A stretch of DNA of 20,517 nucleotides, from the IMG/VR virus record IMGVR_UViG_3300029309_000011, positions 62,001 to 82,517 of that record. One strand, 5' to 3'. Under the pieces are notes generated by a model, which saw nothing but the letters and a program-made list of their open reading frames with translations, ran no database searches and was not told the DNA's origin. The position numbers were made by a program, and so were the translations under genes. Below are positions 4,204 to 15,589 of the stretch, piece by piece (positions within the stretch are counted from its first letter, which is position 1; each line of letters begins with the position of its first letter). Origin of the DNA: an uncultured virus (IMG/VR IMGVR_UViG_3300029309_000011) (Duplodnaviria; Heunggongvirae; Uroviricota; Caudoviricetes).

Positions 4204-4689
4204 TTAAGATTCTTCCTGAAGTATTTTTGTCCATACTCCCATAGATGCTTCTTGTAAAGGACCCTCGATAGGATCATCTCGAAAAATAGATAACATTTCT
4301 CTTAATGCTCTATCAGCTCCAGCAAGAATTAATCCTTGTTTATCCATAAGAACTTTTTTATCATCTAATTGTTTTATTGCTCCACGTAATTCTTTTTGTA
4401 ACATTGCAATTCTTGCAGCACCCATATCTTGCTTTACTAAACCCATGTCAATAGCTTGCCTAAGTTTTGAAATGTCATCCTGCATATTATCTATCTCTCT
4501 TTCTAAAACTATGTTGAAATTTCGTTTTTTAAATTCTTTTTCTGTCCATTCGTTACACTCCACTATCGTCCCTTGAAATCCTAAAAATCGGGAAAATAAA
4601 TATATCTGTACTGGAGAAGCTGTCTTTTTACAAAATTCAAGAAAGGATTCACGATCTTTGTTATTTAAAGACTGAATCCATTTCTTCAT
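4204..4689 (-). CDS. Putative terminase small subunit
   Basis: 161-aa helical/coiled-coil ORF immediately upstream of terL; positional inference only. Confidence 0.5.
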   Translation of the reverse strand: MKKWIQSLNNKDRESFLEFCKKTASPVQIYLFSRFLGFQGTIVECNEWTEKEFKKRNFNIVLEREIDNMQDDISKLRQAIDMGLVKQDMGAARIAMLQKELRGAIKQLDDKKVLMDKQGLILAGADRALREMLSIFRDDPIEGPLQEASMGVWTKILQEES

Positions 4690-5537
4690 ACTCTATAAGA
4701 ACCTCTTGCTTGTTGAAAATCTCTATTCTCTTTATAGCGTCTAAACATCTCTCTTTGCAACTCTGTAGATCTTTGTTCTGCTGCTGTTCTGCTAACAGTT
4801 GATCTTTGTTCTTGCCCAGTAGTTCTGATGCCAGCTCTCTGTTCCTCCCCAGTAACCCTTGTAGTAGCTCTTGTTTCCTGTCCAGAGGTTCTTCTTAAAG
4901 CTCTATCTTGTTCCCCTGTTGTTCTAATTCCAGCTCTCTGTTCCTCCCCAGTAACCCTAGTAGTCGCTCTAGTTTCTTGTCCAGTAGTTCTTATACCTGC
5001 TCTTTGTTCTTGCCCTGTAGTTCTTATCCCTGCCCTTTGCTGTCTACCAGTCTCTGCTGTTCCAAGACGATCTTGTAGTCCGGTTTCTCTGATGCCGGCT
5101 CTTTGTTCTAAACCTCTTCTCTGTTCAGTTAAACGTGTCTGTGATCCTTCTATTCTTCTTAAATCTCTTTGTTCAGTTCCTTGTGTTCGTAGAATAGACC
5201 TTTCCTGCTCTCCTCTTAGTCCTATTTGCCTTTCTTGTTGATTTGCTAATTGAGCTTGAGTTGCTCTTTCTTGTAAAGCTCTATTTGTTTCTGTAAGCCT
5301 AGTTTCCTGTCCGGCAACTTGTGTAGATAATCTATTTTCTGCCGCAGTTGCTTGAGTTCTTCTTATGTCTTGAGTAGCAAAGGCTTCTGCGTTTATCCGA
5401 TCTAATTCTGCTCCTAATTCTTGATTCAATCTTTGTTGTTTTTGTGCAGCTTCATTAAGAGCTATTTGTGTGTCTAAACTTTGTGATGGTACCTGAACAA
5501 CTATGTTCCCTAAATCCGATAATGTTTCTTCTTCCAT
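4686..5537 (-). CDS. 11-residue-repeat coiled-coil protein, putative virion/DNA-ejection protein
   Basis: Tandem hendecads such as EQRAGIRTTGQ, ETRATTRVTGE, QDRALRRTSGQ; 4-nt overlap with the next gene. Confidence 0.75.
   Translation of the reverse strand: MEEETLSDLGNIVVQVPSQSLDTQIALNEAAQKQQRLNQELGAELDRINAEAFATQDIRRTQATAAENRLSTQVAGQETRLTETNRALQERATQAQLANQQERQIGLRGEQERSILRTQGTEQRDLRRIEGSQTRLTEQRRGLEQRAGIRETGLQDRLGTAETGRQQRAGIRTTGQEQRAGIRTTGQETRATTRVTGEEQRAGIRTTGEQDRALRRTSGQETRATTRVTGEEQRAGIRTTGQEQRSTVSRTAAEQRSTELQREMFRRYKENRDFQQARGSYRV
4760..5330 (-). repeat. 33-nt-period coding tandem repeat with a 99-nt higher-order duplication
   Basis: Exact 29-mer ccagctctctgttcctccccagtaaccct at 4831 and 4930 (offset 99). 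Boundaries approximate. Confidence 0.9.
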
Positions 5538-7312: not shown

Positions 7313-7537
7313 TTAACTATTCTTTGCCTTTAGTTCTTTTTTTGCTTCTCTCATATATTCATATAAAACGTCCATATTTAACATCAAAATACCATCGATT
7401 TCTACAACAGCCTCTGGAATAATTTCTTGTACCTGTTGAGCAGAAAAACCTGCCCTTAACTTTTGTTCTGGATCAAGTTCTTTTTTATATCTAAACTGTA
7501 TAGGTTGTAATTTTTTTAATTTCTCAAGAGCACTCAT
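7313..7537 (-). CDS. Stand-alone C-terminal part of a Peptidase_S74 (intramolecular chaperone) domain
   Basis: ALEKLKKLQPIQFRYK...RAGFSAQQVQEIIPEAV plus terminal coiled coil match the S74 consensus; the S-D-x-R-L-K start is absent. Confidence 0.85.
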   Translation of the reverse strand: MSALEKLKKLQPIQFRYKKELDPEQKLRAGFSAQQVQEIIPEAVVEIDGILMLNMDVLYEYMREAKKELKAKNS

Positions 7538-11532: not shown

Positions 11533-12411
11533 ATGGCTACAAAGCATACTGAAAGCATGAAAGCTTTTCAAAACAAATATAATTTAAGTTTTCAAAACTT
11601 CTTTACTTTCACTAATCCAAAAATCGAGAAAAATAACAAGATTGAAGAAATCCCAACCGCTTGCTTAATGCTAATGAATACGCCAAAAGCCTGTCCAGCA
11701 GCAGGATCTTGCCGATCTGTCTGCTTGATTACATCGGGGAATCCTATTTACAAGGATGGGAAAATGAAATGCAGATTAAGGAGAAATAATGCATTTATGC
11801 AGGATTATCAAATGTTTTTAAGATACTTAGTTATTAATTGTTTTAAACATTATTTCAAAAATAAGAATGCTTCAAAAGTGGCTTTCAGAATGAATGGGGT
11901 TTCAGATTATCCTTTCGAGTCAATTAGTGTTCAATTGACTCAAGAAGATACAGATTACATTCAAAAAGCTTTTAACATCTACATAGAGCCTATTAGGTAT
12001 GGTTCAGTGATTGAAGCGGTTCAAAAGGGTTTAGATTTAGATAATAATCAAGTACTTAGAAACTTTGTTCAATTCTATGATTATACGAAAAGGATTGATA
12101 GAGACTTTAAAAAAGCTAATGAATTAAATTATCATTTAACTTTGTCTCATGGTTCAAAGTTTGATACATTCTCAAAAGCTGTTGAAGAGGGTTTAAATTA
12201 TGCAGCAGCTTTTAATCTTAAGAAGTCTCAACCATTACCAAAGACTTTTAACTATCAAGGTAAGGAGCTAATAGTCGTCGATGGCGATGTCAGTGATTGC
12301 AGATTCCTAGATTTAAATAATGATACTCATATCATAGGTTTAAGATTTAAAATTGTAGAGAATAAAGACAACGCTAAAAAATTAGAATTCTGCATTGATA
12401 CACGCTCTTAA
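11533..12411 (+). CDS. GP88-like phage protein with Cys cluster
   Basis: CPAAGSCRSVCL, FRMNGVSD, QFYDYTK, YHLTLS, DGDVSDCRFLD, IIGLRFK motifs as in the GP88 family. Confidence 0.8.
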   Translation: MATKHTESMKAFQNKYNLSFQNFFTFTNPKIEKNNKIEEIPTACLMLMNTPKACPAAGSCRSVCLITSGNPIYKDGKMKCRLRRNNAFMQDYQMFLRYLVINCFKHYFKNKNASKVAFRMNGVSDYPFESISVQLTQEDTDYIQKAFNIYIEPIRYGSVIEAVQKGLDLDNNQVLRNFVQFYDYTKRIDRDFKKANELNYHLTLSHGSKFDTFSKAVEEGLNYAAAFNLKKSQPLPKTFNYQGKELIVVDGDVSDCRFLDLNNDTHIIGLRFKIVENKDNAKKLEFCIDTRS

Positions 12412-14306: not shown

Positions 14307-14477
14307 ATGAAAAGAAGATACATTGATGCTTATTACAATCTCAGATCTAACACCAGTATAGATCGCTTCAATAGACAAGAATGGAACAATGCATTTAAAG
14401 CTATAGATGATCTAGCAAAAGCGGATCTGGAGGAGCTACAACAACCTAATCAAATCATCAAGGGAGATCTATTATGA
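14307..14477 (+). CDS. Small hypothetical protein (56 aa; not in ORF track)
   Basis: AGGAGG SD; MKRRYIDAYYNLRS...IIKGDLL*; ATGA overlap with the methyltransferase. Confidence 0.75.
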   Translation: MKRRYIDAYYNLRSNTSIDRFNRQEWNNAFKAIDDLAKADLEELQQPNQIIKGDLL

Positions 14478-15589
14478 ATCACCCAGAATTAAAAATCCTA
14501 GATTTATTCTCAGGTATTGGTGGCTTTTCATATGCTGCCGAAAATTTCTTTCAAGGACAATTCAAAACTACTCAATTTGTAGAAATCAATCCTTACTGCC
14601 AAAAAGTCTTATCTAAAAATTTTACAGGAGTACCAATCCATGACAACATCAAAACATTTAAAGCAACAGAGGGACAATTTGACATCATTACAGGAGGATT
14701 TCCCTGTCAGGATATCTCAGTTGCAGGACAACAAAAAGGAATCGGAGAAGGAACTAGGTCAGGATTATTTTACGAGTGCATACGGTTACTTAGGGAAATT
14801 CGACCAAAGTTCGCCATCTTTGAAAATGTTAGAAATTTACTCTCCATTGAAGAAGGGAAAGTATTCCAAGAAGTCCTCTTTCAAATTGCCCAAGCAGGGT
14901 ATGATGCTGAATGGTCAGTTGTTTCAGCAAGAGATGTGGGTGGCTGCCACCTTCGAGAGCGTGTCTGGATCTTATGCTACCCTAGCGACTCCGAATTGCA
15001 TGGACGCACTTCCCCAGAGAGGTTACGATTCGATGCTAAAACAAACTCAGGTACACAGAAAAGGAAGAACAAAACTAAGCAATCTGAGAGAGCAAGTAGA
15101 CCCCAAAGCGAGACAATTATTCGAGGAGTTACAACAGATGAAACTTCCAACTCCAACCAGTCAGGAAGCAGGGAAGGGGGATTTTTTAAAGACACTAGTA
15201 ACCAAAGATGGGAAGCCTGCAAAACTCGGACAGAGAGCATACAATCCGAAGACAGGGAAACACGTTCAGATAACTCTAGACAGAGCAGTAAAAATGAATC
15301 TACCAACACCAACATCAAGGGATTGGAAGGACTCAGGGGAGAACATGAACTACAAGAAAGCTGCGGAGAAGAAAAGGCTCGTTGGCGTACTCAACCATAC
15401 ACACTCAGACCTGACTGGAGAAGATACGACTCTGAACCCTGCCTTCGTAGAAGAAATGATGGGGTTCCCAATAGGATGGACGCAAATTGGAGAAACAGAA
15501 AAGAAAGAATAATCTGTTTAGGTAATGCTGTAACACCTCAGCAAGCTGCCATCCCACTAGGGAGAATCATTGACCTTATCAAGTCATAA
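14474..15589 (+). CDS. DNA (cytosine-5) methyltransferase, alpha polypeptide
   Basis: Motif I LDLFSGIGG, IV GGFPCQD, VI ENV, VIII RERVW, X RIICLGNAV; no recognisable motif IX, and the variable region is low-complexity. Confidence 0.93.
   Translation: MNHPELKILDLFSGIGGFSYAAENFFQGQFKTTQFVEINPYCQKVLSKNFTGVPIHDNIKTFKATEGQFDIITGGFPCQDISVAGQQKGIGEGTRSGLFYECIRLLREIRPKFAIFENVRNLLSIEEGKVFQEVLFQIAQAGYDAEWSVVSARDVGGCHLRERVWILCYPSDSELHGRTSPERLRFDAKTNSGTQKRKNKTKQSERASRPQSETIIRGVTTDETSNSNQSGSREGGFFKDTSNQRWEACKTRTESIQSEDRETRSDNSRQSSKNESTNTNIKGLEGLRGEHELQESCGEEKARWRTQPYTLRPDWRRYDSEPCLRRRNDGVPNRMDANWRNRKERIICLGNAVTPQQAAIPLGRIIDLIKS
14640..15512 (+). CDS. Nested +1-frame ORF, putative methyltransferase beta polypeptide (motif IX-like)
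   Basis: 290 codons open wholly inside the MTase; AGGAG at 14626-30, 9 nt before ATG; L(A/P)TP modules; LNPAFVEEMMGFPIGWT at C-terminus. Confidence 0.75.
   Translation: MTTSKHLKQQRDNLTSLQEDFPVRISQLQDNKKESEKELGQDYFTSAYGYLGKFDQSSPSLKMLEIYSPLKKGKYSKKSSFKLPKQGMMLNGQLFQQEMWVAATFESVSGSYATLATPNCMDALPQRGYDSMLKQTQVHRKGRTKLSNLREQVDPKARQLFEELQQMKLPTPTSQEAGKGDFLKTLVTKDGKPAKLGQRAYNPKTGKHVQITLDRAVKMNLPTPTSRDWKDSGENMNYKKAAEKKRLVGVLNHTHSDLTGEDTTLNPAFVEEMMGFPIGWTQIGETEKKE

Follow-up and report, generated by a model that had tools for sequence, protein, structure and literature searches.

A two-frame, probably two-chain C5 methyltransferase gene in an uncultured phage with tandem LPTP modules as putative recognition units

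A C5 DNA methyltransferase gene of an uncultured phage is open in two overlapping frames and very probably codes for two chains, an organization that we consider real and well supported. Our preferred reading, to which we give a probability of roughly 0.6, is that the nested chain (beta) completes the catalytic fold of the main chain (alpha) by supplying motif IX and carries tandem LPTP modules as alternative recognition units, which would serve the evasion of host restriction. An earlier note on this DNA had proposed a heterodimeric phage methyltransferase with motif IX and target recognition residing in the nested chain, and this proposal is backed by selection, stop avoidance and conservation of layout as well as by a predicted complex and a likeness of the modules to known recognition motifs.

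The locus and its two chains

The window (the whole stretch of 20,517 nucleotides that was analysed) covers positions 62,001 to 82,517 of an 82.5-kb virus record (IMGVR_UViG_3300029309_000011). Judging by sequence, the source genome is related to cyanophage S-EIVl, a Synechococcus phage with whose terminase that of the record is 67.5% identical. The methyltransferase gene is the sole PF00145 gene of the whole record, while S-EIVl itself gave no match to this family, and it is found in marine metagenomes. Contigs of RNA runs that cover parts of the gene were left unused, as neither strand nor expression can be read from them. The scan of the flanking ORFs, which took in all but a few short ones and gave no family match for most, detected no endonuclease, and the gene appears to be an orphan without a cognate restriction endonuclease alongside. 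The plus-strand cluster that contains it starts with a gene of the GP88 family. The features of the window discussed here are as follows:

4686..5537, minus strand: 283-aa ORF near the terminase with imperfect 11-residue repeats (EQRAGIRTTGQ) and no match in Pfam
7313..7537, minus strand: short Peptidase_S74 (endosialidase chaperone) ORF
11533..12411, plus strand: GP88-family protein (PF17338, E 3e-17)
14474..15589, plus strand: alpha, 371 aa, C5 DNA methyltransferase (Pfam PF00145, E 3e-51)
14626..14630, plus strand: AGGAG, Shine-Dalgarno-like, 9 nt ahead of the beta ATG
14640..15512, plus strand: beta, 290 aa, nested in alpha in the +1 frame, 873 nt including the stop (phrog_1008, E 7e-18)
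14640..14981, plus strand: N-terminal arm of beta, overlapping alpha motifs IV to VIII
14982..15143, plus strand: beta module 1, type A, LATPN..LREQV, 54 aa
14987..15403, plus strand: variable region of alpha, kept stop-free with unconserved protein sequence, as judged from dN/dS, stop randomisation and pLDDT
15144..15299, plus strand: beta module 2, type C, beginning LPTPTSQ (LPTPT..LDRAV), 52 aa
15300..15431, plus strand: beta module 3, type B, terminal, beginning LPTPTSRDWKD (LPTPT..LVGVL), 44 aa
15432..15482, plus strand: motif IX in the beta frame, LNPAFVEEMMGFPIGWT
15500..15586, plus strand: alpha motif X and C-terminal helix

Alpha resembles M.HhaI both in a profile search against solved structures (E 1e-46) and in its predicted fold (Foldseek E 5e-16, with M.HhaI T250G present in the fold comparison). 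The earlier note had assigned motifs I to VIII and X to the main frame, which is borne out by the PF00145 match and by the positions of the motifs: I (FxGxG; FSGIGG at 14507), IV (PC; PCQ at 14702), VI (ENV at 14822), VIII (RxR; RERV at 14954) and X (GN; GNAV at 15521) are all intact. Motif IX is absent from the alpha frame. Alpha residues 181 to 300 are predicted to be disordered (pLDDT about 31 to 45) and are not selected as protein, in agreement with the junk-like variable region described before.

The +1 frame is open from 14640 to 15512, as had been noted, and holds the three modules and motif IX at the positions given above. Beta has no significant family match in Pfam or NCBIfam, and the PHROG that it matches is labelled DNA methyltransferase. 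Among 46 non-redundant loci, 39 have a methionine where beta begins. The Shine-Dalgarno site credited to beta is present in this window but is not a feature of the family, since a similar site precedes only 6 of the 39 non-redundant homologs that keep the beta ATG. Because this site is rarely present and the first 60 codons look neutral (dN/dS 0.98, compared with 0.64 for the rest of the overlap with motifs IV to VIII), beta may start at a site other than 14640, with Met codons near 14900-14936 as further candidates.

Selection, layout and the predicted complex

The two frames are free of stops, and selection acts on each of them in a separate zone. Synonymous-codon randomisation, with 500 draws per frame test, led us to expect 14.5 stops in the alpha frame across the modules and 5.8 in the beta frame across motifs IV to VIII; neither stretch holds a single one, and in both tests none of the 500 draws was stop-free. 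The frame-specific dN/dS comparison across homologs that the earlier note had suggested places selection on beta over the modules and motif IX and on alpha over motifs IV to VIII, with values that are approximate, simple counting estimates from non-independent pairs in which each frame distorts the other. Beta dN/dS lies between 0.07 and 0.20 in 6 of the 8 module types shared between relatives (A 0.12, B 0.15, C 0.08, H 0.07, O 0.15, T 0.20; type P reaches 0.50 on few changes and type E is saturated) and at 0.18 in motif IX, while alpha dN/dS across the same module types ranges from 1.1 to 13.8. Over motifs IV to VIII the values are 0.25 for alpha and 0.81 for beta. The closest relative shows the same switch, with 0.08 for beta over the modules and 0.11 for alpha over the catalytic part.

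This organization is widely shared among viral relatives. Searching with beta yielded 80 viral loci, among which 70 show the +1 nesting, 9 run off the end of their contig and 1 is an exception (L041, 2153-3591, where alpha ends after motif VIII and motif X comes in the frame of beta), so that the nested layout is found in 70 of the 71 complete loci. Another 80 viral loci were found with alpha patterns alone, ranked by likeness to this alpha and using a family-derived motif X pattern, and thus form no random sample of C5 genes; both frames are open in 72 of them, 4 are cut and 4 are frameshifted. The +1 frame, which the earlier note expected to be uninterrupted in close homologs, is therefore intact and nested in 72 of 76 complete loci of this set. 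Eighteen of 80 loci from bacterial genomes were also classed as nested. The distance from motif IX to motif X is most often 47 nt (45 of 57 scored loci). In a tree of alpha cores, the LPTP enzymes fall together on one side of a branch with an SH-aLRT value of 95 (69 rows that remained after removal of 43 unclassified sequences and near-duplicates, picked for their resemblance to this gene and rooted only at the midpoint). With the beta profile, 32,917 protein clusters are hit at E<=1e-10, which is a loose upper limit because fragments and members of other nested classes are counted as well. In L041, L100, P0138, P0142 and P0176, motif IX is followed by motif X within the beta frame, a layout like that of M.AquI, and these sequences may be real intermediates or frameshift errors.

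These last sequences bear on the idea that the gene makes one polypeptide by two programmed frameshifts, from alpha motifs I to VIII into the +1 frame for the modules and motif IX and back for motif X, with no separate beta. The beta-to-motif-X joins, the rare database proteins that connect the start of alpha to the end of beta (P0021, P0089, P0131, P0159, P0174) and the unconserved Shine-Dalgarno site would all fit such a route. However, it leaves unexplained why alpha stays stop-free across the modules and beta across 114 codons of motifs IV to VIII, the beta methionine is conserved, fused proteins are rare and may be explained by misassembly or by broken genes, and the passages of PMC2836561 on M.EcoHK31I have that enzyme made as two chains. 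We consider a frameshifted single polypeptide very unlikely.

Beta folded alone gives a low-confidence model (pLDDT 60, pTM 0.26) without a Foldseek match among solved folds at E<=0.001, and its comparison with PDB sequences returned ferritin noise only. Modelling of the complex, a check proposed along with the original idea, gave a score of 0.86 for alpha, beta and SAH together versus 0.12 for the best of 3 controls, a mark that 116 of 157 solved complexes attain, as do 2 of 215 mismatched pairs; the complex runs share at least 38% of contacts, with a partner pLDDT of at least 48. Alpha and beta are thus predicted to bind. This score may stem from the resemblance of the pair to one-chain enzymes with solved structures, since halves of split genes tend to pass, and the model speaks for halves that fit a known fold rather than for binding in the cell. 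In the model, beta residues 262 to 284 with motif IX contact alpha residues 340 to 356 with motif X as well as alpha residues 15 to 49, and beta residues 46 to 105 pack against alpha residues 123 to 164. Module 3, the last, is the only module to dock confidently, and beta residues 106 to 218 are without confident contacts. The N-terminal arm of beta would accordingly be seated on the edge of the alpha sheet, and motif IX and the last module beside alpha motif X, with the alpha linker possibly serving as a merely stop-free tether to that motif.

Beta could instead be an independent overprinted protein, or the pair could do something else than methylate specific sites, for example methylate cytosines broadly and with low specificity. 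The missing family matches of beta and the missing structural match of beta alone leave room for this, but alpha lacks both motif IX and a selected recognition region, and the motif IX of beta is found at a fixed offset from motif X and docks there in the model. We regard an unrelated role of beta or of the pair as quite unlikely and return to the two-chain methyltransferase for what follows.

LPTP modules as cassettes and candidate recognition units

Cutting 248 beta sequences at their modules gave 772 segments that group into 111 clusters, including one spurious N-terminal class. The modules repeat with a period of 44 to 54 aa, and 96 of 109 module types are net basic. Between 1 and 6 modules are present in 69 of 70 alpha-found nested loci, and the string of the window reads A-C-B. 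These strings vary in length and order between near-identical enzymes: six loci with alpha cores that are more than 90% identical carry four different strings of 2 to 4 modules, and protein P0005, which is identical to the beta of the window at 211 of 238 positions (89%), lacks exactly the 52 residues of the type C module 2. Contigs of runs X4 and X9 point to an in-frame loss of module 2 (net 156 nt) whose junctions fall within the LPTPT repeat or at its edge, though with a short side of 30 letters, one below the bridging mark, they give a hint only and the P0005 pair is the firmer evidence. Modules have been added, removed and rearranged without loss of the frame, and their exchange may proceed by recombination within the LPTPT-coding repeats. 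They are not freely interchangeable, because types B, F, L, P and Q occur exclusively at the end of the string, a place where type C is never found. Another module, about 150 aa long and with a stretch that resembles a helix-turn-helix by eye (IKKTTIEHWFR), occurs in L010, L030, P0126, P0139 and P0146 and is placed past motif IX in some betas.

A conserved TL dipeptide marks the recognition region of C5 enzymes. Recognition is placed by the relevant passages of PMC3404938 in the variable region, which forms a small domain together with motif IX. Beta carries its tandem units between motifs VIII and IX, and their likeness to TL motifs is moderate. A profile built from 109 module cores, with the P/L column left out, was run against 15 one-chain enzymes; by eye, its best hit fell on a site of T[LI] type in 10 of them, 7 with p<=0.055, and failed to do so in the other 5, including one M.HhaI-like enzyme. 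The comparison is partly circular, as a T was required when the modules were cut. In the multispecific enzyme of phage phi3T (a 453-aa open frame), the same profile picks SPTLTT (p 0.006), and a second unit follows 47 aa further on, much like the module period, with a weak score (p 0.46). No selected alternative recognition region is seen in alpha. It is likely that recognition resides on beta, where the LPTPT core would correspond to the TL motif of C5 recognition domains, and we lean slightly towards one specificity per module. One module at a time may then engage the DNA, as in the multispecific enzymes of Bacillus phages, so that several sequences would be methylated and several host restriction enzymes evaded; we infer both this multispecificity and the anti-restriction role.

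The position of the modules allows another account, in which the two-chain enzyme takes a single specificity from its terminal module and the internal modules provide DNA affinity or a reserve for recombination. The confident docking of module 3 alone is what this account would predict, as are the distinct terminal types (B is terminal in 110 of 110 cases and C in 0 of 70) and the 15 of 70 loci with a single module. Yet the internal types A, C and H experience purifying selection as strong as that on terminal ones (0.12, 0.08 and 0.07), unlike a silent reserve, and type A occurs in both places (terminal in 9 of 166). Specificity from the terminal module alone is thus possible but rather doubtful, and we prefer to see all modules of a string as alternative recognition units.

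Restriction pressure on this phage is suggested by its genome. Six palindromes are missing from the 82.5-kb record (0 occurrences each) at expected counts on both strands of about 48 for GCGC, 20 for CGCG, 34 for GGATCC, 12 for TGGCCA, 19 for CCATGG and 17 for GCTAGC, a strong restriction-site avoidance that fits such pressure. We rejected naming the targets of the methyltransferase from this k-mer depletion, as the absent sites may be the ones that the enzyme leaves unprotected.

Relation to known two-chain and multispecific enzymes

The earlier note had likened the gene to that of M.EcoHK31I (recognition sequence YGGCCR), whose beta chain is encoded in another frame inside alpha, with motifs I to VIII and X and the recognition domain on alpha and motif IX on beta (described in passages of PMC2836561), and which is called an exception among C5 methyltransferases in a passage of PMC3404938. 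This parallel holds for the nesting in the +1 frame and for the split of the motifs between the chains but not for the design of recognition. Using a primer from the supplement of PMC2836561, which found nothing in plasmids, we located an EcoHK31I-like E. coli locus (L252, 2014-2943) with chains of 309 and 176 aa that aligns to both alpha and beta. Systems of this kind occur in 81 of 5426 E. coli genomes, with beta unannotated in the record examined, and P1-like plasmid dmt methyltransferase genes match the EcoHK31I beta as well. L252 does not group with the LPTP enzymes in the tree of alpha cores, has 53 nt between motifs IX and X rather than the 47-nt mode of the LPTP family, and adjoins a NotI-family restriction endonuclease gene, whereas the gene studied here appears to be an orphan.

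Selection in the EcoHK31I family was read from 35 distinct loci (38 sequences aligned well, drawn from the 38 metagenome loci L271-L308 and L252). Its TL zone is under selection in the alpha frame (pN/pS 0.08, compared with 1.83 in beta) and its motif IX in the beta frame (0.21), so the published assignment of recognition to alpha holds for EcoHK31I. This alpha-frame selection also overrules a PTLLT site in the EcoHK31I beta, which shares its bases with YTLDS of alpha and scores higher with the module profile, as a candidate recognition site. The family has no LPTP array in beta, while in the gene of the window the modules are selected in beta and multiplied. The profile match of the EcoHK31I beta to the beta described here (E 6e-8) is weak, because it is partly forced by alpha homology, and covers only the overlap with alpha motifs VI to VIII.

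In function, the closest parallel is probably found in the orphan enzymes of the temperate Bacillus phages phi3T, SPbeta, SPR and H2, which direct tandem recognition domains against several restriction systems (as reported in passages of PMC12707154 and PMC8936443). Tandem units are common to both, and the TL unit of phi3T matches the module profile. The Bacillus enzymes are single chains with array and motif IX in the main frame, whereas here the array is on an overlapping chain that is kept stop-free in the other frame too, and multispecificity is proven for the former and inferred for the latter. M.AquI (CYCGRG) is another two-chain enzyme, whose small chain supplies motif IX together with the distal variable region (described in a passage of PMC3404938); in contrast to the gene of the window, with motif X in the alpha frame, that chain also carries motif X and alpha does not span it, a layout shared with a few relatives (L041, L100, P0142) and there possibly due to errors. 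Streptococcus prophage enzymes (L184, L188 and kin) resemble our gene in a +1 frame that is open across motifs IV to VIII but differ in having motif IX and the TL motifs in the main frame. Such one-chain C5 enzymes with a stop-free +1 frame in Streptococcus and Gemella genomes (L184, L188-L205 and kin) make up a second nested class. The putative methyltransferases of the pneumococcal phages MM1 and VO1 appear in PMC8637289, in passages that leave nesting unmentioned. The literature searched, with subscription papers outside its range, returned no paper describing the LPTP-module family. The enzyme of the window thus combines an M.EcoHK31I-like layout with a function that is probably similar to that of the Bacillus multispecific enzymes and is a strict member of neither group.

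A nested design related to that of M.EcoHK31I is common in phages. In three cultured phages checked, annotation covers alpha only, and an unannotated beta means that the chain likely to bear specificity is invisible to motif prediction. Synechococcus phage S-H1 is an example of a cultured carrier. The wider picture, about which we are evenly divided, would be a very large and mostly unannotated phage family of multispecific cytosine methylases in which more than 100 module types on an overprinted chain recombine in frame at LPTPT repeats, each with one target, so that the module string records the restriction systems of the hosts. If the modules are recognition units, they would amount to a naturally occurring collection of short C5 specificity cassettes that can be swapped, allow a direct test of how TL-type domains encode sequence and provide a marker of the conflict between phages and host restriction. 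The locus further provides a clear example of long overlapping genes whose evolution proceeds by in-frame exchange of cassettes.
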